Origin: Pseudomonadota bacterium
Lineage (GTDB): Bacteria > Pseudomonadota > Gammaproteobacteria > Xanthomonadales > SZUA-38
Length of the DNA: 64,000 nucleotides
NCBI GenBank assembly: GCA_039195135.1
Contig: JBCCVP010000009.1
Coordinates: 1,629-65,628 of the forward strand
Direction: 5' to 3'
The notes beneath the pieces are model-generated. The model saw only the letters and a list, made by a program, of their open reading frames with translations. It searched no databases and was not told where the DNA came from. This document shows, one piece after another, positions 1,597-41,147 of this stretch. Made by a program: the position numbers and the translations under genes. Position 1 is the first letter of the stretch; every line of letters starts with the position of its first letter.

Positions 1597-2751
1597 GTGG
1601 CCGAAATACTACTTGTCGGTGCGCGTGACGACGCGCTGACCAATCTGCAGCGCTACGTGGCCGCGCAGGAGCCTGACTGGTCCGTGGTGCACAGCCTCGA
1701 CAATCAGGGGGCGCTGGAGCGGCTGCGCAAGCGCTCCAGCGACATCGTGCTCGCCGGCATGGAAACGGAGCAGTGCGAGCTGCTTTTCTCCGAGGTGGGG
1801 GAGACGGCGCCGGGGGCGATCCGCCTGGCCCTGTCAGCGGCACCGGCTCATCTGATTCGCGGCGCCCATCAGATTCTGGCGCGGCAGAGTGAGCTGGACG
1901 ATCTGCATCAGCGGCTGCGGGCCGCCGTGCGCGTGTCCTCCCGCTCCGCCGGCCGCCGACGCCTGCAGCGGATCATCTCCCGGTTTCAGGAGGTGCCGTC
2001 ACCGCCGCAGCTCTACTTTGATATCCGGGAACAGCTCGACAGCGCCGCCGGCACGTCCACCAGCATGGCGGAGATTGCCAGCAAAGACCCGGCGCTGGTG
2101 GCGCGTACGCTGCAGATCGCCAACTCCGGCTTCTACGCCCGTTCAGGAACGGTGGGGGATCTGGTGGACGCGATCACGCTGCTGGGCACGGAAACCCTGC
2201 TGGGACTGGTGCTGGCGGCGCACCTGTTTTCGGGCATGCCGCCCCCGGGCCTCAAGCTGGACATGCTCTGGCGCCATTCCTTTTCCGTCTCTCAGCTGGC
2301 CCGGGAAATCTGCCGCGGCGAAGGCGGCAAGGCGGGTGAGGCCAGCCACAGTTTTCTGGCCGGCCTGCTGCACGACATCGGCCTGATTGTGCTGTTTCAG
2401 AACGAGCCGGCCGACTACCTGCCCATGTGGCAGGCCGCTCAGGGTGATGAGGATACGCTGGTTGACCTTGAGCGGGAAGCGTTTGAGATTTCTCACGCGG
2501 AGCTCGGTTCCATGGTGCTGACGCTGTGGAATCTGCCGGAGCGGGTGGTGTCTGCGGTTGCCGCAAGCCATGCCGGCGACCTTGCGCCGACCGATTGCCG
2601 CGTGTCTCGCGCGGTGCTGGCTGCGGAGTGGCTGCTGGGGCGCGACTGCCCGGCCACGCTGGATACGCTGCCCGCGCCGCTTGCCGACACCAGCGCCGCC
2701 ACGCTTGCGAGCTGGGTGGACGCCCGTTCCCGTTTGGAAAGCGGCAGCTGA
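1597..2751 (+). CDS. HDOD domain protein with an N-terminal receiver-like (pseudo-receiver) domain
   Basis: GTG start. The HDOD signature is present (PSPPQLYFDIREQL...IASKDPALVARTLQIANSGFYA...LLGTETL). The N-terminus is CheY-like, but the acceptor position reads DIVLAGME. Confidence 0.85.
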   Translation: MAEILLVGARDDALTNLQRYVAAQEPDWSVVHSLDNQGALERLRKRSSDIVLAGMETEQCELLFSEVGETAPGAIRLALSAAPAHLIRGAHQILARQSELDDLHQRLRAAVRVSSRSAGRRRLQRIISRFQEVPSPPQLYFDIREQLDSAAGTSTSMAEIASKDPALVARTLQIANSGFYARSGTVGDLVDAITLLGTETLLGLVLAAHLFSGMPPPGLKLDMLWRHSFSVSQLAREICRGEGGKAGEASHSFLAGLLHDIGLIVLFQNEPADYLPMWQAAQGDEDTLVDLEREAFEISHAELGSMVLTLWNLPERVVSAVAASHAGDLAPTDCRVSRAVLAAEWLLGRDCPATLDTLPAPLADTSAATLASWVDARSRLESGS

Positions 2752-2761
2752 GGTGGACGTT

Positions 2762-5725
2762 ATGAATCAGTCGGAACTGCTACGGGAATGTGTTGAAGAG
2801 TTCAAACGGCTGGCCGGTGCCCGCCATGCCAGTGTCGCGATCCACCTTTCACCCCTGGAGCGGCGATCACTTTTCGTCGCGGAAGCGGGCGCCGGCCCTG
2901 CCGTGGCTGAGCTGCAGGACGAGGCCACGGCCTGGGCGTTTATCAGCGCGCGGGACGTGGACGATGGTGATGCCCCGGTCGTCAGCGTGGTTCCGGGGAA
3001 AGAGGCCGGAACGACGCTGGTGCGCGTTGCGTTCCACGAGCTCCTGCCCCAGCCATCCTCGGAGCGGCGGGATGGACGGGAACGGCGACTTGATCCGGTG
3101 GTGCGAACGGCGCTGCCGCGAGATGGTGCGTTGTGGATCGGGCTGCGGGACGCCAGCGATGTGTCGGCGCTGGTGGGGGATCTCAACCCGGAAACCGCCT
3201 TCACCGATTCCGACCCCGTCCTCCACCGTTTGACCAACCTGTGCTGCCGGCTTGCGTTCAGCGTGTACTACCTGTCGACGCTGACGCTTGATCCGGTAAG
3301 CCAGCTGGCTGGCCGCACCCACCTGCAGGACTTTCTGCGCCGCGCGGTCAGCGCGCTTAAGCAAAGCGAACAACCGATCGCCCTGCTGCTCGTCACGGCG
3401 GACGATTTCGCCATGATCAACTGCCGCCACGGGCGGCAATTCGGTGACCAGGCGATCAGGGAGATCGCCGAGCGTTTGGAGTCCACGCTGCGCAGCACGG
3501 ACGGATTGTTCCGCTACAACGGCGCGGCGTTTGCGGTCGTGCTGCCCGCTACCAACCCCAGCCAGGCCCGGGCCACGGCAGACAAGCTGAGAACGCGGCT
3601 GGTGGGGCAGGGATACCTGGAGGAACAGCTGCCACTGACCTTCAGCATGGGCGTAGCTGTGGCAACGCCGGAAGAACTTCAGCATTGCGAAGACGCTGAG
3701 ACCGCCCTGTTCCGGCATGCCGATACGGCGCTGAACAGCGCCCGGCTTTCCGGCGGTGCTCAGTGCTGCGTGCTGTCGTTGTCGGACGAAGATGCCCCGG
3801 CCCACGGCAATCCGCTGAACGGCGTGTTTACCGCCGACACGGAAAAAGACCACCGCAACATGCTGCTGCTGTGGGATACCGTCACGCTGGTTTCCAGCGT
3901 GCCCGAGCCGGCCCAGATGGCGAGCCGGTTTGTCGAGCGGATCGCCAGCGTATTTCGCCCGGAGCGGGTGGCGCTGCTGCGCCCCGCTGAAGAGGGCCTG
4001 CAGACGGTGGCCAGCAGCCTGCGGGATGACGCCCGTCCCGACGGCCGGATCACGGGGCGCCCGATCAAGCTGAAGTCGAGTCACGCTGACCTGGTTACCC
4101 AGGCGATCGACACGCGGCAGGTGGCCCGGTCACGCACGGAGCAGGGCGCCGCGGCGTCGCGGGTGGCCTACGCCGTGCCGCTGGTTTCCGGCGCCGCCAG
4201 TCAGGGCTGCCTGTTCCTGGAAGTGCGGCGGGACACGATCAAGGTGGACTCAGCGGACGTGGTGTTTCTCAATGCGCTCGCCTCGCAAATGGCGGTCGCC
4301 ATGGAGCGGGCGGAGCTGGCGTCCCGGCAGTTTGAGGAAAAGGACCGGGAAAGCCGGTCCCTGCGAAGAGAGGTGCGGGGTCTTAGGCAGGCGCTGAAGC
4401 ACAGCCGCATGGTGTATCAATCCCAGGCGATGCACGAGGTGATGCAGCTGCTGACCAAGGTAGCGCCCACCGACGCGACAGTGCTCATCATCGGGGAAAG
4501 CGGCACCGGCAAAGAGGTGCTGGCCCGCAGCGTGCACGAGCTTAGTGACCGCCGAGAAGCGCCGTTTGTGGTGTTTGACTGTGGTGCGGTGGCCCCCACG
4601 CTGCTGGAGGCAGAGTTGTTCGGCCACATCAAAGGCGCCTTTACCGGCGCTGACAAAGCGTCCGAAGGGCATATCGCCCGGGCCGCCGGGGGCACCCTTT
4701 TTCTGGATGAAATTGGTGAATTGCCGCTCGGTATTCAGGCCAAGCTGTTGCGCTTTGTGCAGGAAAAAGAATTTGCCCCGGTGGGCAGCGCGAGCACCCG
4801 GCAGGTGGACGTGCGGGTGGTGGCGGCGACCAACCGCCGACTTGAGGACGAAGTGGCCGGCGGCCGCTTTCGCGCGGACCTTTACTACCGCCTGCGGGTG
4901 ATTGCGGTGGACGCGCCACCGTTGCGTCAGCGGCCGGAAGACATTCTGCCGCTGGCCCACTACTTCGTGGAAAAGTACGCGGTGCAGCACGGCCGGCCGG
5001 TCAGCGACCTGACGCCGGCGGCGCAGCAGAAGCTGCAACAGTATGCGTGGCCTGGCAACGTTCGGGAGCTCGAAAACAGCATCCTGCGGGCGGTACTCAC
5101 CCACGGCGACGGTCCGCTGGACGCCGCGGCGATCGAGCTGGAAACGGAAGGCCGCGCGCCGGTCGGCGCACCGGTCGCGGCGGTCTCGCCCCTGGCCCTG
5201 CCGCCCACCGCCATGCACGGCGGTCACGTCGCTGCTGACGCGGCGGTGATGCCGCCGCCGGTGGACCCCTGGGGGTCGCTGCAGGCGGAGCTTGAGCGAC
5301 AGGTGGAGCTTGCGGTGGCGGACGACGGCCGCCGTCCGGTGCCCCTGGGGCGCTGGCTGAATGAAGATCTGATCCTGCAGGCCAGCGAGGCCTGCGACAA
5401 CGTGGCGCGCCGCGCTGCGAGCCTGATCCAGGTGCCGGAGTCGACGTTCCGCCGACACTTGGACAAGGTGCACACCGGCGTCGCCAATGGCGGCCTGTTT
5501 CGCACGGATCACTGGAGCCCGGTCCGGCCGCTGCTGCGGCGGCTGATTGAGCAGGCGGACGCGGAGAGCGACAGCGGGCACAGCCTGCTGGAACGTTCCC
5601 GCTCCACGCTGCTGCGCTGTGTCCGGTCCCGGCTCGACGGACGCGCGTCCACTGCCGCGTCCCTGATGGGGGTAACGCCGCTGACCTACAAACGTTGGCT
5701 CAGCGAGCAGGAGGAAAGATCATGA
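2762..5725 (+). CDS. sigma54-dependent enhancer-binding protein: N-terminal region, degenerate GGDEF, GAF-like, AAA+, Fis-type HTH
   Basis: ATG at 2762 (MNQSELL), 10 nt after the HDOD stop. The AAA+ domain has GESGTGKE, GAFTGA and LFLDEIGE. The C-terminal HTH is ASLMGVTPLTYKRWL. The GGDEF-like block reads RSTDGLFRYNGAAF. Confidence 0.9.
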   Translation: MNQSELLRECVEEFKRLAGARHASVAIHLSPLERRSLFVAEAGAGPAVAELQDEATAWAFISARDVDDGDAPVVSVVPGKEAGTTLVRVAFHELLPQPSSERRDGRERRLDPVVRTALPRDGALWIGLRDASDVSALVGDLNPETAFTDSDPVLHRLTNLCCRLAFSVYYLSTLTLDPVSQLAGRTHLQDFLRRAVSALKQSEQPIALLLVTADDFAMINCRHGRQFGDQAIREIAERLESTLRSTDGLFRYNGAAFAVVLPATNPSQARATADKLRTRLVGQGYLEEQLPLTFSMGVAVATPEELQHCEDAETALFRHADTALNSARLSGGAQCCVLSLSDEDAPAHGNPLNGVFTADTEKDHRNMLLLWDTVTLVSSVPEPAQMASRFVERIASVFRPERVALLRPAEEGLQTVASSLRDDARPDGRITGRPIKLKSSHADLVTQAIDTRQVARSRTEQGAAASRVAYAVPLVSGAASQGCLFLEVRRDTIKVDSADVVFLNALASQMAVAMERAELASRQFEEKDRESRSLRREVRGLRQALKHSRMVYQSQAMHEVMQLLTKVAPTDATVLIIGESGTGKEVLARSVHELSDRREAPFVVFDCGAVAPTLLEAELFGHIKGAFTGADKASEGHIARAAGGTLFLDEIGELPLGIQAKLLRFVQEKEFAPVGSASTRQVDVRVVAATNRRLEDEVAGGRFRADLYYRLRVIAVDAPPLRQRPEDILPLAHYFVEKYAVQHGRPVSDLTPAAQQKLQQYAWPGNVRELENSILRAVLTHGDGPLDAAAIELETEGRAPVGAPVAAVSPLALPPTAMHGGHVAADAAVMPPPVDPWGSLQAELERQVELAVADDGRRPVPLGRWLNEDLILQASEACDNVARRAASLIQVPESTFRRHLDKVHTGVANGGLFRTDHWSPVRPLLRRLIEQADAESDSGHSLLERSRSTLLRCVRSRLDGRASTAASLMGVTPLTYKRWLSEQEERS

Positions 5726-8700
5726 AGGCCTCAGGTCTGCTTCGAAAGCTCTGCGCCGCAGCGGCCGTTCTGGCGCTGCTGTGCGCTACGCCAGCGTTCG
5801 CCGCGCAGCCGGTGGACACGCTGAAGCGGAACCTCAAGTTCGTCAATCTGACGACGGAGGATGGCCTGTCCAGCGAGTTTGTCACCGCCGTCGCGCAGGA
5901 TGGTCAGGGCTACCTGTGGTTTGCTACCCAGTCCGGTCTCAATCGCTACGACGGTCATGAGATCCGCGTGTACGAACATCGACCGGATCAGCCCAACTCC
6001 ATCAGCGACAATTTTCTCCGGGCGCTGGTGGTCGACCACCAGGGGGAGCTCTGGGTGGGCACCGGGCGCGGGCTCAATCGCTACGACGCCAGCCGCGACT
6101 CTTTTGTGCAGCGGCCGTTTGATGGCCAGCTGGCGGATCTGCGAATCCGGGCGGTGACCCAGGATGACAACGGCCGTTTCTGGGTGGGCACGGTGGCGTC
6201 GGGGCTGTTCGCTATCGACCGTGATGGCAGCAATCTGCGGCACTATAGCCACGAGCCGGGCCGGCCCGACTCGCTGCCGTCGGATCAGGTGATCACCATG
6301 CTGGAAAGCCAGACCGGGGAGGTCTGGGTCGGCACCGACGGAGGGGGCCTCGCGCGCCTCGATCGCGAGCAGCAGTCCTTTACCGTGTACCGCCACCAGC
6401 CGGATGATCCAGCCAGCCTCGCCGGCGACGAAATCCGTTCGATGTTTGAAGATCGCGATGGTTTTATCTGGGTCGGCAGCGCGCAGGGCGGCCTAAGCCG
6501 CTACAACCCGGCAACGGATCGGTTTGACCGTTTTGCCCACAACGACGAGGACCCTCTGAGTCTGGGTACCGGCCAGGTTCCAGCCATCTTCGAAGATCGC
6601 GATGGCACCCTGTGGGTGGGTACGGAAGCGGGCCTTTCTGAGTGGCGGCCTGCCCGGTCCGGCTTTGTAACCTACCGGCGCGATCGAGGCGGTCGCTACA
6701 GCCTGGTGAATGATCGCGTCAACGCGATCAGTCAGGATGCTTCCGGCGTCCTTTGGGTAGCCACCCACGGGGGCGTCAGTGCGTGGAACTACGTGAGCGA
6801 CACGTTCTTTCAATACAACGCGGAGGGCGGCTTTGTCGCCTCCGACATCGTGACCTCCGTGGCTCAGTCCCAAGATGGCCACGTGTGGGTGGCCACCTAC
6901 GGCGGTGGACTGTCACGCATCAACATGAGCGACGGCGCGGTGCGCCAGTTCCGCCATCGGCCGGGTGATGCCACCAGCCTGGCCGATGACCGGGTGATGG
7001 CGGTGTACGTCGACCAGGCGGATCAGGTGTGGGCGGGCACGCGGGACGGTGGCTTGTGCCGACTTGTGGGTGAGGACAGCTTTTCCTGCTATCAGTATGA
7101 CCCGGCCGACAGCACGTCGCTGAGCGGCAATGCGGTCACCCGGGTTTACAGCGACAGCAACGGCGACCTCTGGGTGGGCGTGTTTGGCGGGGGCCTAAAT
7201 CAGCTTCGCTGGGAAGGCGACCAGGCCCAGTTTCGCCGGTTCCGCCACGACCCGGAAAACCCGGCAACGCTGAGCTCCGACCGGGTGCTCGCCATGGCCC
7301 ACGGCCCGGATGGCTACCTGTGGGTCGGCACCGAAAGCGGCGGCCTCAACCGGCTGGATCTCGAGACCGGGCGGGTGCTGCGTTTCGATATTGAACCCTA
7401 CGCCACCAACAGCGGCGTAGATCCGGTCAGCGGCAGCCCCTGGGAACTGTATTTTTCCGAGGACGGTGCGCTCTGGATCGGCACCATGAGCCAGGGCCTG
7501 CTGCGCTGGTCCGAGCGCGATCGCGCCGCCAACCGGGCCGAGTTTGAGCGCTTTGGCCTGAACGACGGACTGACGTCCGGCATCTACGGCATCGTACCGG
7601 GCGACGACGGCAAGCTGTGGCTGAGCAGTAGCCAGGGCCTGTTTGGTTTTGACCCAAAGCGCCGGACCGTGAGGAAATTTGATCGGAGCAACGGCCTGCG
7701 CAACAACGAATTCAACGTGGGGGCGCGACTGAAAACCCAGTCCGGTGAGCTGATTTTTGGGGGCACCGCAGGATTGGTGGCGTTTTCGCCCCAGGCCCTG
7801 CCGTTCAACGCGACGCCGCCGCCGATCGCCCTGTCCGCCCGCTCCCGCCGCGCGGTGCTGGCCCGCAATGGCGATGGCGGGACGCCGCAGGTCTCGATCA
7901 CCTATCACGACCCGTTTGTCGCCTTTGATTTTGTGGCGCTGGATTTTGTATCGCCGGACAAGAACGCCTACCGCTACCGGCTGGAGGGCTACGACAGCGA
8001 CTGGAATGATGCAACGCAAATGCGCACGGCGGTTTACTCCAACCTGCCCGCCGGCAGCTACACCTTCCGGGTGAACGCCTCCAACAGCAACGGCGTGTGG
8101 AATCAGGAGGGTGAAGCGATTGTGCTGACGGTCTCACCGGCTCCCTGGGCAACAAGCTGGGCCTTCTTCGGCTACGCGTTCGCCGCCGCAGCGTTGCTGC
8201 TGTGGGCGGTGCGCCGGCAGAAGCAGAAGCGGATGGCGGAGATTGAGCAGCGCGTGAAGCTCGAGCTCCTGGTGGCCGAGCGCACCAGCGAACTTGAAAC
8301 CCGCAATACTGAGCTGGAAGCGCTGAACCGGAAGATCGAGGACGCCAGCCTGACAGACCAGCTGACGGGCCTGCGCAATCGCCGCTTTATTCACCAGTTT
8401 ATTGACTCCGACCTGTCGACGATTGAGCGCAATCACTACCGGAGTCAGCAGGATCCGGAGGCTCGCATACCCGACCAGCTGCTGTTTGTGATCATGATCG
8501 ACCTGGATCGCTTCAAGCCGGTGAACGATCGTCTTGGGCATGACGCCGGGGACCTGGTGCTGCAGATGGTCTCAGACCGCCTCACGACCTGCTGCCGCGC
8601 CTCGGATACGCCGGTGCGCTGGGGCGGCGATGAGTTTCTCCTGGTGGGCTACACGGAGACCTTTGAAGGTATCGAGACGCTGGCGGAAAAGGTCCGCGTC

Positions 8701-38448: not shown

Positions 38449-39015
38449 TCAGTTGATCCGAAATCGACTCTCCTGACTTACCTGCGCCTTAAGGAATGCC
38501 ATCTGGTCGGCCAGAATGCGTCGATTCGACAGAATCAGTCCTTCCGCCACGTTCGGGACATACGGGATCGCGAGCAGCTTCATGCGCAGTTCGCTGAGCA
38601 GTCTGCTGCCTTTACGCTGATTGCAGGCGCGGCACGCTGTCACCACGTTTTCCCAACGATCTCGGCCGCCTCGAGCTACGGGAATCACGTGGTCCCGGGT
38701 GAGCCAGGCCGGCGGCAGCACCTCCCCGCAGTACAGACACATGTGCCGATCCCGCTGAAACAGGCGCGCGTTGGTCAATGCGGGTACATCCCGTTGTTTC
38801 CGCCCGTTCCGGTTCCGGAAACGGGTCGCGACAATCGTATTCAGGTCCAGCCGAGACCGCTTCCCGGTCGCCCGCGAAACGCCGCCGCGCAGGCACAAGG
38901 TCGCTGCGCCGGCCTCCCAGGCGACCCGGTCCAGGCAGTACAGCGTGGCGCACTGCTCCCGGGTCAGCCAGCCCAGCGGCAGGCCGGCAATATCCAGTTT
39001 TAAAATCCACACCAT
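38449..39015 (-). CDS. HNH endonuclease family protein (188 aa)
   Basis: CLYCG...LTRDHVIPVARGG...WENVVTACRACNQRKG. AAGGAG RBS at 39028-39023, 7 nt before the ATG. Confidence 0.85.
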   Translation of the reverse strand: MVWILKLDIAGLPLGWLTREQCATLYCLDRVAWEAGAATLCLRGGVSRATGKRSRLDLNTIVATRFRNRNGRKQRDVPALTNARLFQRDRHMCLYCGEVLPPAWLTRDHVIPVARGGRDRWENVVTACRACNQRKGSRLLSELRMKLLAIPYVPNVAEGLILSNRRILADQMAFLKAQVSQESRFRIN

Positions 39016-39020
39016 CGTTT

Positions 39021-39052
39021 TGCTCCTTGAGAATGTGGATGTGTGAAGGGCC
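39021..39052 (-). repeat. 3' arm of the long-range stem (inverted copy of the boxA/GU-rich leader segment); contains the HNH Shine-Dalgarno
   Basis: The plus strand TGCTCCTTGAGAATGTGGATGTGTGAAGGGCC compares with the reverse complement of 40805-40836. The core 16/16 match is at 39032-39047. About 27 of 32 positions can pair, counting one G-U. Confidence 0.7.
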
Positions 39053-39057
39053 TTGAT

Positions 39058-39135
39058 TGGTAGCCGCCCTCGGACTCGAACCGAGAATCGCCTGTTTCTG
39101 AAACAGGCAGGTATGCCAATTCCCGTCAGACGGCT
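39058..39135 (-). tRNA. tRNA-like gene, anticodon CAG (Leu) on a class I scaffold with a weak D-stem; CCA encoded
   Basis: T-arm CTCGG-TTCGAGT-CCGAG. Acceptor AGCCGTC/GGCGGCT with A73. Anticodon arm CCTGT-TTCAGAA-ACAGG. The variable loop is only 5 nt. The D-loop GAATTGG is Leu-like, but only 2 of 4 D-stem pairs form. Confidence 0.55.
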
Positions 39136-39142
39136 TTGTTTG

Positions 39143-39213
39143 AGACGCTGCCCGGATTCGAACCGGGATTTGAGGATTTGCAGTCCTCCGCCTTACCCTT
39201 CGGCCACAGCGTC
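39143..39213 (-). tRNA. tRNA-Cys (GCA)
   Basis: Clean cloverleaf. Anticodon loop CTGCAAA, U73 discriminator, G13-A22 mismatch as in other tRNA-Cys. CCA is not encoded. Confidence 0.85.
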
Positions 39214-39223
39214 GTTCCAAAAG

Positions 39224-39299
39224 TGGACCGCCTGGAGGGACTCGAACCCCCGGCCTGCCGGTTCGTAACCGGCTGCTCTTCCAGCTGAGCTACAGACGG
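39224..39299 (-). tRNA. tRNA-Arg (ACG)
   Basis: 76 nt canonical cloverleaf. Anticodon loop TTACGAA, A20 present, CCA encoded, unusual C1-G72. Confidence 0.85.
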
Positions 39300-39303
39300 T
39301 AGT

Positions 39304-39378
39304 TGGTTTGAACCATCGGACTCGAACCGATATCTCCAGGGTCACGACCTGACGCTTTACCCTTAAGCTAGGCTCAAC
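39304..39378 (-). tRNA. tRNA-His (GUG)-like with encoded G-1, A73 and C33
   Basis: All four stems form well. The anticodon loop TCGTGAC has C at position 33. G precedes U1. CCA is encoded. Confidence 0.65.
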
Positions 39379-39424
39379 ACCGTGGGAGCCCGAAGAGTTG
39401 TCAAATCCCTGGCTCCGAAAAAAT

Positions 39425-39502
39425 TGGTCTGAAGGGCTGGATTTGAACCAGCGACCCCTCGGTTCCAAACCGAGAACTCTGACCAGACTGAGCTACCTTC
39501 AG
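39425..39502 (-). tRNA. tRNA-Pro (UGG)
   Basis: Canonical cloverleaf with C1-G72 and A73. Anticodon loop TTTGGAA. CCA encoded. Confidence 0.88.
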
Positions 39503-39545
39503 CTTTCGCAGCGTCGGGGCTGTTTGCTCCCGCCGCTGCCCATGT

Positions 39546-39621
39546 TGGTAATCCGGACAGGATTCGAACCTGCAATCTCGAGGTTGAAGGCCTCGCGGCT
39601 TAACCATTCGCCTACCGGATC
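39546..39621 (-). tRNA. tRNA with anticodon UUC (Glu) on a non-Glu-like scaffold, C33
   Basis: Exactly 76 nt in canonical numbering. The anticodon loop CCTTCAA has C33. There is a G1-U72 wobble and A73. The body does not resemble gammaproteobacterial tRNA-Glu. Confidence 0.6.
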
Positions 39622-39628
39622 AAAAAAC

Positions 39629-39703
39629 TGGCGCTGCGGATCGGGCTTGAACCGACACCTGCTGGATCGACAATCCAGTGCTCTAACCTTGAGCTACCGC
39701 AGC
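39629..39703 (-). tRNA. tRNA-Asp (GUC)
   Basis: Canonical cloverleaf. Anticodon loop TTGTCGA, G73, CCA encoded. Confidence 0.88.
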
Positions 39704-40048
39704 GGATAGAACGGCTGAGACTAGGCCGTTGCCAATCACCCTTTGACGGGATTACCCAGCACCTGCCGGCGCCGGTTGCCCGCGTGTCCACGCTCAACCG
39801 GCGGGCGCCGGCTTGAACGTAGGCGATCATGACTGCCTTTTTTGGAGTGTGGCGACTCACTCATCGCGCGTGTCTAGTCAGCAGTTTGCGTACCGTGAGC
39901 CTCGCGGGCTCCAAATAGGGGCTACCCAACCGTGCGGCGCACCGCCAAAGCCTTCTCTGCTTGCGGCATCGAAGGCCACCGGATTGTCTTGCGACTCCGG
40001 CCTTAAGCCACTTTCGACACGAACTGAGGCGCGTCTTTGCGTTTGCTA
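39704..40048 (-). ncRNA. ORF-free, tRNA-punctuated spacer of about 345 nt; candidate structured RNA of unknown class
   Basis: No credible ORF on either strand. Many local GC-rich hairpins, for example AAGGCCGGA...TCCGGTGGCCTT and CGCCGGTTG...CAACCGGCG. It is bounded by a tRNA-like element and tRNA-Asp. Confidence 0.3.
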
Positions 40049-40118
40049 AAGCATGTGCCGGACTCGAACCGGCTATCTCGATCTTGAGTCGAACGCTCTC
40101 CCGTTGAGCTACATTGCA
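40049..40118 (-). pseudogene. degenerate tRNA-like element, anticodon CAA
   Basis: Good D-arm (TAGCTCAACGGGAGAGC), anticodon arm (TTCGA-CTCAAGA-TCGAG) and T-arm (GCCGG-TTCGAGT-CCGGC). The variable loop is only 3 nt, the acceptor stem has 5 bp plus a bulge, and there is no CCA. Confidence 0.45.
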
Positions 40119-40596
40119 TCCCACTGCGACGTGCACGCCTCAGTCGCTTCATAGCCTTTTGGGCCACAAAATACGACACGCCGAATGCCTTTCGCCTGCC
40201 GGCTACTGAGCCGAATGTTCGGGACGCCGGCTCCACACCAGAACCCCGGACCTCTGGGCTGACGCGCTCGCTCGCAAAGCTCGCACTTTTCGCCCTATCC
40301 GTTACCCCTCACGGTTGACGATGTTGGTTTCGCGGGGTGCACCACCACGTGGTCTTTCACTGACCTGCATTCCCGCCCCGCCGTGGCGGTTAGGTGCATC
40401 AATCAGCTACTTCCGCGCATCGCTTGGCCGCTATCTCTGCCGAAGCAAAGACGAGGAGGCCAGACTTGCCTGGACTGACCGAGCTGCTGCTCGGCGAAGC
40501 GCCATGGGGACACTCCTTTCCCGCCGTTACCGACGGTTATCGACGCCAGGCCGCCAAGGCCGATCCCGGCCAGGCCGGTAATCGGACATTCCTAAC
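40119..40596 (-). ncRNA. ORF-free, tRNA-punctuated spacer of about 480 nt; candidate structured RNA of unknown class
   Basis: It lies between tRNA-Asn and the tRNA-like element. Only Arg/Pro-rich shadow ORFs are present. It is GC-rich with many hairpins, for example GAGCCG-N14-CGGCTC. Confidence 0.3.
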
Positions 40597-40672
40597 TGGC
40601 TGGCACGGCAGGACTCGAACCTGCACCACCCCGCTTAACAGGCGGGTGCTCTACCGTTTGAGCTTCGTGCCA
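40597..40672 (-). tRNA. tRNA-Asn (GUU)
   Basis: 76 nt. Anticodon loop CTGTTAA, U1-A72, G73, CCA encoded, unusual A8. Confidence 0.8.
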
Positions 40673-40673
40673 G

Positions 40674-40749
40674 TGGTGGATCGGGTTGGCGTCGAACCAG
40701 CAACGCGCCGGACTTCACCCGGCCGCTCTACCACTTGAGCTACCGATCC
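40674..40749 (-). tRNA. tRNA-Phe (GAA)
   Basis: 76 nt. Anticodon loop GTGAAGT, A73, CCA encoded, one C-A mismatch in the T-stem. Confidence 0.75.
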
Positions 40750-40804
40750 AGAAAACTCGCCGGGACCTCCCGCGTCGGGCACAAAACCACGTCGACCGGG
40801 CACC

Positions 40805-40836
40805 GGCATTTCACACATCCACATTGTTAAAGAGCA
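40805..40836 (-). promoter_or_regulatory. boxA (TGCTCTTTAACAA, 40836-40824) plus a GU-rich boxC-like tract; 5' arm of the long-range stem
   Basis: The minus strand reads TGCTCTTTAACAATGTGGATGTGTGAAATGCC. The first 13 nt are identical to the E. coli rrn boxA consensus. Confidence 0.7.
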
Positions 40837-40839
40837 CAG

Positions 40840-40882
40840 CCAGGGCACAAAAAAGCCCTGGTCAGTTGGTACCTGCCAGGGC
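40840..40882 (-). promoter_or_regulatory. boxB-position hairpin overlapping an alternative terminator-like hairpin
   Basis: The minus strand reads GCCCTGG-N14-CCAGGGC-TTTTTTGT-GCCCTGG. The middle heptamer can pair with either flank. Confidence 0.55.
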
Positions 40883-41112
40883 TTCACTTGCGTTTTGTCC
40901 TGAAAGGTCCGGTTTCTCGAGCCTTCCAGAACAAATGTCTGGAGGCTTTACCGCATCGGCTCACCATGGCGAAGGCAAAATGCATTCGCGCGCCGGCCGC
41001 GGTCATTCACGGGGCGCAGGTCAAGCATCTGCGTCGCACACAAACGGGCAGCAGCGTCTTTGACGCGCGCCGGCGTTTGAGCAGCGGTACTGATTGAGTT
41101 AGAAAATTGCAT
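40883..41112 (-). other. transcribed leader (about 230 nt) between the predicted TSS and the boxB/boxA elements
   Basis: Position is inferred from the promoter at 41147-41120. There is no convincing ORF. Confidence 0.4.
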
Positions 41113-41119
41113 GCCGGGG

Positions 41120-41147
41120 AGTATACGCCGGAAGAACGCCGTGTCAA
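41120..41147 (-). promoter_or_regulatory. near-consensus sigma70 stable-RNA-type promoter
   Basis: TTGACA (41147-41142), a 16 bp spacer, TATACT (41125-41120), then the GC-rich discriminator CCCCGGC. Confidence 0.7.

Follow-up and report, generated by a model that had tools for sequence, protein, structure and literature searches.

Complementary arms around a gammaproteobacterial tRNA/GOLLD array probably form a leader–trailer RNA helix like that of rRNA operons

Leader–trailer helices coupled to boxA are viewed as a hallmark of ribosomal RNA (rrn) operons. The rrn helix is 25–40 bp long, shows covariation that includes wobble pairs, and is essential for active 30S subunits (Warner et al. 2023, PMC10250234). 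According to the model for its formation, NusB-bound boxA keeps a second element, boxC, close to the RNA exit channel for as long as the trailer has not emerged (PMC10250234, PMC4807359); boxC (UCUGUGUGGG) sits in the 5′ strand of the Escherichia coli helix, 18–19 nucleotides (nt) past boxA, values that apply to Enterobacteriaceae (PMC10250234). L-arrays, which are long tRNA arrays linked to HNH and RtcB genes, are induced by translational stress in Anabaena (Santamaria-Gomez et al. 2021, PMC8421152), and the tRNA arrays of Mycobacterium hold both the GOLLD RNA and an HNH gene (Behra et al. 2019, PMC6582537). tRNAs embedded in GOLLD have also been described already (PMC6582537, PMC12286853). 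Here we analyze a 64,000-nt stretch of DNA from a bacterium of the Pseudomonadota (GenBank assembly GCA_039195135.1, contig JBCCVP010000009.1, positions 1,629 to 65,628), referred to as the window, in which a minus-strand array of tRNA genes and a GOLLD RNA is bracketed by two complementary arms. We consider it likely that these arms pair as leader and trailer in an RNA helix, formed within the primary transcript of a tRNA/GOLLD array that was acquired horizontally and that would follow an rrn-like design.

A repeat finder places the arms at 39012–39052 and 40805–40845, 41 nt that are 78% complementary. An earlier note on this DNA had described a long stem here, with about 27 of 32 positions paired, one G-U pair included; the stem itself stands, but the recount is 28 of 32, made up of 27 Watson–Crick pairs and one G·U pair, with four mismatches. 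The 16-bp perfect core that the note placed at 39032–39047 and 40810–40825 was located exactly there, and it is the only perfect 16-nt inverted repeat in the window whose copies are spaced within 3 kb. As 32-nt arms, the two strands form a duplex of −45.9 kcal/mol. With the 3′ arm as probe against the whole window, the true 5′ site ranked first of 1278 tiles (best −45.9, runner-up −38.3, mean −23.0, standard deviation 4.3), and the pairing has a z of −4.1 relative to dinucleotide shuffles, 1 of 1000 of which reached the observed value. In the local centroid fold, the 5′ arm is single-stranded between two hairpins, and an alternative local hairpin, from the 3′ arm to the start of the HNH gene that follows it, is not significant (−10.5 kcal/mol, z = −0.25). 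Chance complementarity as the source of the arms was ruled out by the tile and shuffle nulls together with the recurrence of the arms in 14 other loci. The window has one other perfect 16-nt inverted repeat, at 371–386 and 8584–8599 (ACGACCTGCTGCCGCG); it is GC-rich, with 8 kb between its copies, and probably arose by chance.

The 14 further loci with the bracket (L004, L014, L017, L103, L225, L242, L243, L244, L246, L248, L249, L250, L274, and L275) come mostly from gammaproteobacterial metagenome-assembled genomes. The bracketed loci span 1.8–6.6 kb and hold 5–33 tRNAs each, and the 3′ strand starts 0–25 nt past the last tRNA in 11 of the 15. The consensus strands are GCTCTTTAACAA-YGTGGATTGTGTGA (5′) and TTCACACAATCCACRTTG (3′), and arms that have diverged yet remain complementary are seen in the window (AATGTGGATGTGTGAA), L004 (AACAATGCGGATTGTGTAGACGT), L017 (TTTAACAATTTGGATGATTGAAG), L103 (ACAACTTGGGTTGTTTGCAC), and L225 (ATCGGAAAGTGTGTTTT). 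Covariation was assessed on a gap-free alignment of the 15 arm pairs over a 21-bp helix, with 500 shuffles and slid-column controls. Standard pairs fill 88.3% of the cells, compared to 71.8 ± 1.6% after shuffling and 27–40% when the columns are slid by one to three positions. Both sides have changed in 16 of the 21 pairs (10.1 ± 1.4 in the control) and in 56 cells (20.2 ± 3.5 expected). Covariation of the two arms across related genomes, which the earlier note had proposed to look for, is therefore positive in the 15 loci: the score is 0.492, which none of the 500 shuffles reaches, versus 0.182 in the control, and a helix structure displaced by two columns gives a background score.

The arms belong to a cassette of about 2.7 kb from promoter to HNH gene, which on the minus strand runs in the order promoter, attenuator leader, boxA, tRNA-Phe and tRNA-Asn, a non-coding stretch of ~885 nt, seven tRNAs, and the HNH gene. 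Its features are as follows.

41120–41147, minus strand: sigma-70 promoter, TTGACA-16-TATACT, matching 11 of 12 consensus positions, with AT-rich DNA upstream
40948–41112, minus strand: leaderless leader open reading frame (ORF) of 54 amino acids, C-terminus ...RHGEPMR*, its ATG 7 nt past the −10 hexamer
40849–40947, minus strand: putative attenuator RNA with segment 1 (40947–40938), segment 2 (40930–40920), and segment 3 (40910–40899), able to form mutually exclusive helices
40855–40884, minus strand: terminator hairpin of the attenuator (40884–40855), followed by a U-run (40854–40849)
40824–40836, minus strand: boxA, TGCTCTTTAACAA, an exact 13/13 match
40805–40836, minus strand: 5′ arm (leader strand), co-varying with the 3′ arm; the complementarity continues to 40845
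40674–40749, minus strand: tRNA-Phe(gaa), found by ARAGORN and Rfam
40597–40672, minus strand: tRNA-Asn(gtt), found by ARAGORN and Rfam
39712–40596, minus strand: GOLLD RNA of ~885 nt (Rfam RF02032), with the conserved 3′ domain at 39712–40186 and the 5′ half at 40187–40596
40050–40117, minus strand: tRNA-like insert within GOLLD, found by Rfam
39058–39703, minus strand: seven tRNA genes, for Asp, Glu, Pro, His, Arg, Cys, and Leu, found by ARAGORN and Rfam
39021–39052, minus strand: 3′ arm (trailer strand), beginning 6 nt past tRNA-Leu; the complementarity continues to 39012
38449–39015, minus strand: HNH endonuclease gene, 188 amino acids (Pfam HNH_5, 5.2e-17; HNH, 2.9e-13)

The likeness to the leader–trailer stem of 16S rRNA, which the earlier note had claimed, is borne out by the exact boxA, by the co-varying arms, and by a common geometry that extends to pairing between boxA and the trailer. 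The boxA of the window is the same as that of the E. coli rrsH leader, the one rrn leader used in our comparison, and no other site in the window matches it with two or fewer mismatches. Most of the 15 loci have GCTCTTTAACAA, or a variant with one or two mismatches, ahead of the 5′ arm, those of L103 and L248 being more degenerate. The leader of E. coli rrsH (...CTGCTCTTTAACAATTTATCAGACAATCTGTGTGGGCAC...) pairs with its trailer (...GTGCTCACACAGATTGTCTGATGAAAATGAGCAG...) at −67.5 kcal/mol; the helix strand directly follows boxA, and in the boxA region itself CUGCUC is paired, opposite GAGCAG. The counterpart in the window is the pairing of UGCUCUUU, within boxA, with AAGGAGCA. A 16S gene was searched for in the fetched related loci, and none was found. 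Such close resemblance raises the question of whether the arms are a non-functional fossil, left behind when an array took the place of 16S within an rrn operon or picked up the leader and trailer of one. The exact boxA, the boxC-like UGUGUG, and the rrsH-like geometry would all fit such a history, but the two sides of a fossil helix would be expected to decay independently, and what is seen instead is a helix that is 88% paired with 16 of 21 pairs changed on both sides, next to HNH genes whose products are only 50–66% identical. We therefore attach very little probability to the fossil explanation, whereas an origin of the arms from an rrn leader is plausible and would not exclude a function today.

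The arms could, in principle, act as DNA rather than RNA, being either the terminal inverted repeats of a mobile cassette or the crossover sites of an invertible segment. Arrays of this kind are horizontally transferred (PMC8421152), inverted repeats around a cargo are typical of transposons, and both arms are conserved in sequence, as would be expected of sites bound by one protein. However, the earlier note had already seen no recombinase or transposase nearby, and indeed none was found in about 13 kb to each side of the array, nor is there a phage gene in that range. The only transposase among the loci, which is of the IS481 type (L244), is inserted inside the array rather than at its borders. 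The conserved unit reaches past both arms, to the promoter and attenuator upstream and to the HNH and RtcB genes downstream, and boxA, an RNA signal, shares nucleotides with the 5′ arm. Outside the arms, the flanks CCTGGCTG and AAACGATG differ, which agrees with the absence of a target-site duplication noted before. Across the 15 loci, every one of the 262 enclosed tRNAs shares its strand with the arms, boxA, and the HNH gene, so the segment does not invert. Finally, the mismatches at the centre of the helix are all U·G and on one strand: in the central 11 pairs, 165 of 165 cells are standard; read on the tRNA-sense strand, seven of these are U·G, A·C and C·A are absent, and one helix column runs through U-A, U·G, and C-G without a C·A state. 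The preference of the earlier note for an RNA-level role over DNA inversion or transposition is thereby upheld by the constant orientation, the absence of a recombinase, and the position of the arms inside the conserved unit, and we regard a role at the DNA level as highly improbable.

The 3′ arm lies so close to the HNH gene that an effect on its expression has to be weighed as well. The gene starts 15 nt beyond the 21-bp helix, and its AAGGAG Shine–Dalgarno sequence (SD) is contained in the 3′ arm of the window. The helix might thus chiefly be a switch for the translation or stability of the downstream HNH (RtcB) mRNA, with excision of the array being incidental. Pairing would conceal the ribosome-binding site or mark the mRNA for cleavage, and the encoded proteins would be made only once transcription of the whole array is complete. 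This is consistent with the pairing of the SD with the boxA nucleotides UGCUCUUU and with a complementarity that, in the window, reaches the ATG; furthermore, the helix end and the start of the next ORF are no more than about 35 nt apart in 15 of 15 loci, including L274, where a different ORF of 308 amino acids takes that place, and the lambda N leader, controlled by RNase III, offers an established precedent. On the other hand, the part of the helix that is conserved and co-varies is the core beside boxA, not the part that covers the SD, which is outside the helix in L017, L243, and others, and a local hairpin would hide the ribosome-binding site more cheaply than a partner 2–6 kb away beside boxA. 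A switch as the chief function is therefore unlikely in our judgement, and it is compatible with a leader–trailer helix rather than exclusive of it.

The HNH protein might alternatively recognise the helix itself, so that the HNH nuclease or another factor of the cassette, not RNase III, would use it, either to process RNA or, with a copy at each end, as a site for DNA homing. The HNH gene is the constant neighbour of the 3′ arm, relatives with 50–66% identity lying directly 3′ of it in 14 of the 15 loci; in L274, the ORF after the arm encodes a different protein. Also in favour of recognition, the N-terminal ~75 residues match no known family, and relatives of the protein are embedded in phage tRNA arrays; the matches of the protein itself are generic HNH-domain ones only. 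Those phage arrays with related HNH genes, however, are without the bracket, and HNH nucleases are typically DNases. Recognition by HNH or another cassette factor thus seems to us a very distant prospect; the AlphaFold model of the HNH protein has a pLDDT of 59.6, too poor to judge whether there is an RNA-binding fold.

A number of observations weigh against a helix of the rrn type. The 15 loci share kinship, so the cell counts given above exceed the number of independent events. For the wobble bias, that number is about six, and the frayed helix ends also hold A·C-type mismatches (five cells); the asymmetry is suggestive of RNA over DNA, not decisive. The perfect core is 16–17 bp in many loci (range 16–23), which is below the 25–40 bp of rrn helices, and the extension of the helix into boxA and over the SD differs among the loci. 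The arms hold UGUGUG(A) about 9 nt past boxA and lack the GGG, the spacing of 18–19 nt being the Enterobacteriaceae reference. In some relatives the helix encloses a gene for a Band_7 protein, and in L244 that for the IS481-type transposase, for which there is no rrn precedent. Two loci, L245 and L002, carry the 3′ arm motif with neither a 5′ partner nor boxA in the 6 kb and 3.6 kb upstream, respectively; both have the HNH gene and few tRNAs, and they may be decayed or rearranged cassettes. In all, seven more loci have a recognisable 3′ arm only, five of them on contigs that end too soon.

Within the bracket, ARAGORN finds nine tRNAs, to which the tRNA-like element at 40050–40117 is additional, so that 1.7 kb of one strand holds nine tRNAs and one tRNA-like element. 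Rfam matches between the arms are limited to tRNAs and GOLLD, with no rRNA anywhere in the window. The earlier note had counted ten tRNA-type genes and two unknown RNAs: the former are indeed nine tRNAs and the tRNA-like insert, but the latter proved to be the two sides of a single GOLLD. In a permissive Rfam scan, the match to RF02032 at 39712–40186 covers the full model with 133.7 bits (E = 1.9e-36), which is below the gathering score of 150, and a default Rfam scan consequently misses it. The assignment is supported by the orthologues in L017 (153.5 bits), L004 (147 bits), L242, L243, L244, and L250. By nhmmer, the 3′ domain of GOLLD is present in the bracket of seven of the 15 loci, including the window, and as a fragment in an eighth, and the 410 nt at 40187–40596 are kept beside the 3′ domain in eight related loci, as expected of the variable 5′ half. 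Judged by its sequence, the element is one GOLLD RNA of ~885 nt with an embedded tRNA-like insert, here in a gammaproteobacterial chromosome. GOLLD is known to form a 14-mer RNA nanocage. A Band_7/SPFH gene lies between tRNA blocks in L245, L246, L248, L250, L274, and L275, and is missing from the window. In L244, the gene inserted in the array (2635–3822) encodes an IS481-type transposase with rve and HTH_23/28/32 domains; the span there is 5.2 kb, and both arms are intact.

The transcript contains a single canonical terminator, that of the attenuator, which lies upstream of boxA and ends in six U residues; no GC-hairpin followed by a U-run was found between the arms. U6 runs at 39627–39622 and 39423–39418 on the minus strand lie inside the array, directly 3′ of tRNA-Asp and tRNA-Pro. 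They could terminate transcription weakly, and a polymerase modified at boxA should read past them.

Upstream of boxA, the promoter TTGACA-N16/17-TATACT is found at the same place in 12 of the 14 related loci examined, and the ~300 nt ahead of boxA, promoter included, are conserved in architecture (L004, L014, L017, L242–L250, L274, and L275). In the window, the leader has a length of ~270 nt and ends in a GC hairpin with U6 (40884–40849). Equivalent leader ORFs of 48–59 amino acids are present in 12 loci, ending in ...NSGEPMT* in most of them and in GEPMR* in the window, and since the ATG is only 7–10 nt past the −10 hexamer, the mRNA is leaderless. Three copies of a CCUUCCAG/CUGGAAGG motif permit the mutually exclusive helices 1:2, 2:3, and 3:4, followed by the terminator, and the pairable cells over 13 loci amount to 82%, 91%, 83%, and 93% for the three helices and the terminator, respectively. 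Covariation of the attenuator is weak because its sequence is conserved, and Rfam gives only a weak match to His_leader (E = 0.69). A ribosome at the leader stop codon would cover segment 1 and favour helix 2:3 and the terminator, whereas with a stalled or absent ribosome helix 1:2 and the 3:4 antiterminator would be favoured. We therefore hypothesize that the attenuator senses failed translation and controls the tRNA/GOLLD operon accordingly, a route unlike that of Anabaena. Between the terminator and boxA, a second copy of the 5′ half of the terminator stem follows the U-run at 40855–40838 of the minus strand (GCCCTGG, or GCCCCGG in relatives). After read-through, this copy could pair anew with the 3′ half of the terminator; the resulting hairpin, U-rich in its loop, would lie immediately before boxA, where rrn leaders have boxB.

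Taken together, these features suggest the following model, in which a leader–trailer helix is formed and processed as in rrn operons. The strong promoter would fire, and the leader-peptide attenuator would set whether transcription goes on. A polymerase that reads through would transcribe boxA, which would recruit NusB/NusE and other Nus factors, and the modified polymerase would resist termination, both by Rho and at weak intrinsic sites, over kilobases of untranslated and highly structured RNA. Meanwhile, the boxA complex would keep the 5′ strand close to the RNA exit channel, so that the two strands could pair when the trailer emerges 1.8–6.6 kb later, just past the last tRNA. The resulting helix of ~21–28 bp would give entry to a nuclease specific for double strands, most likely RNase III. 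By analogy with rrn operons, the helix is thus probably held by boxA and Nus factors and cut by RNase III. Cleavage would cut the array loose from the attenuator leader on one side and the downstream mRNA on the other, the latter encoding HNH and, in relatives, RtcB; it would leave a short 3′ tail on the last tRNA, open to exonucleases; and it would free the ribosome-binding site of the HNH gene, which lies within the helix in the window, a feature that is not universal among the loci. From the arrangement of the sequence elements, we infer that a single transcript crosses both arms and that the helix affects HNH translation.

A more tentative view, which we put forward as a possibility rather than as the favoured explanation, is that attenuator, boxA, looped precursor, and helix cleavage act together in a self-contained mobile operon for translation emergencies. 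The leader peptide (...NSGEPMT*) would report whether ribosomes still finish a short ORF, and when tRNAs are depleted or cleaved, the terminator would be bypassed. boxA would then turn the polymerase into an antiterminating and chaperoning complex of the rRNA type, and the putative spare tRNAs would be made together with the cage-forming GOLLD as one looped precursor closed by the helix, the cleavage of which would release the RNAs and turn on the HNH and RtcB mRNA.

The genes around the cassette in the window are common chromosomal ones of metabolism and regulation and encode a PQQ dehydrogenase, aldehyde dehydrogenases, a LysR regulator, an ECF sigma factor, a YHYH protein, and a PAS sensor. 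Directly 3′ of the HNH gene, RtcB is found in L243, L245, L248, L250, L274, and L275, but not in the window. The HNH protein family is large (>3400 matches), and in a scan with one genome per species, its closest relatives (about 55–66% identity) were the only ones with a tRNA array directly upstream; no array was found directly upstream of ~70 more distant chromosomal homologues. More distant relatives (42–52% identity) are embedded in the tRNA arrays of many IMG/VR phage contigs.

Annotated phage and plasmid records held no such cassette, BLAST giving single-tRNA matches only. In IMG/VR, a pattern for the L017-type 5′ arm had 18 matches, none of them in an array, and the main-type pattern had four irrelevant matches. 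From these searches, the bracketed cassette appears to be essentially absent from viral contigs, save for the divergent L103. Phage tRNA arrays of up to 25 genes were nevertheless seen that are directly preceded by a TATAAT-like promoter and a boxA-like GCTCTTTAACAA, with no trailer partner detected (IMG/VR loci L100, L106, L115, L123, L161, L278, L334, L350, L379, and L382), which suggests that phages may use rrn-type antitermination for their tRNA arrays. Five of the 18 contigs matched by the L017-type pattern (L255, L259, L262, L264, and L269) have boxA plus TCTGGATGATGG and share ...GCTCTTTAACAATCTGGATGATGGTGCCCGTAGG, resembling the arm of L014 and L017; no tRNA array, rRNA, or complementary partner was found in their fetched DNA.

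In the literature searched, nothing relevant was found that connects tRNA arrays or operons with boxA or RNase III, and the paper on L-arrays (PMC8421152) makes no mention of boxA, a terminator, or RNase III. Within the reach of that search, the bracketing helix appears to be undescribed so far. If the proposed helix is real, Nus-assisted long-range pairing and excision by RNase III would extend to another class of stable RNA, and if the more tentative emergency operon is also true, it would mark the first case of a non-ribosomal RNA array with a co-transcriptional maturation pathway in the style of rRNA. For the question of what GOLLD does, the RNA would gain a defined transcription unit, limits to its precursor, and a signal that plausibly induces it. 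The results also bear on how long tRNA arrays are regulated outside cyanobacteria.

Compared to known systems, the cassette shares with L-arrays the dense tRNAs on one strand, the linked HNH gene (with RtcB in relatives), and a patchy, horizontally acquired spread that includes Proteobacteria. The two differ in their control, which in Anabaena relies on direct repeats in the promoter and the repressor TrcR (PMC10272220) and here would involve the attenuator, boxA, and the helix. With the Mycobacterium arrays it has in common a GOLLD within a tRNA array, a tRNA or pseudo-tRNA within GOLLD, and an HNH gene in the cluster; those arrays are from another phylum, and in the published description, on which alone this comparison is based, neither a bracketing helix nor boxA is reported. 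The RNase III sites of phages, such as those of the T7 early region, the lambda N leader and sib, and the T4 tRNA cluster, are local hairpins. Like the proposed helix, they are double-stranded elements that set apart the functional units of one transcript and can activate or destroy the mRNA beside them, but the array helix spans 1.8–6.6 kb and is coupled to boxA. Archaeal pre-rRNA stems, which contain a bulge-helix-bulge that is cleaved by EndA before circularisation by RtcB, resemble the arms in that a long-range stem brackets a stable RNA, and RtcB is encoded nearby in several of the related loci. However, the array helix has no bulge-helix-bulge, the window has no RtcB gene, and the ends left by RNase III or HNH-type cleavage (5′-P, 3′-OH) are not substrates of RtcB.

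The closest counterpart is the rrn leader–trailer helix, with which the array helix shares an exact boxA, a strand right after boxA, a partner right after the enclosed stable RNA, a GU-rich UGUGUG, and covariation that includes wobble pairs. It differs in its shorter core, in the smaller distance from boxA to UGUGUG, in its cargo, which consists of 5–33 tRNAs, often with GOLLD and sometimes with a protein gene, and in its setting, since the array has a terminator/attenuator before it and an mRNA after it and lies in a horizontally transferred island. Although the geometry is the same, the cargo is not rRNA, and we therefore file the array helix, by analogy, as one that works like the rrn leader–trailer helix and not as a member of the rrn family.

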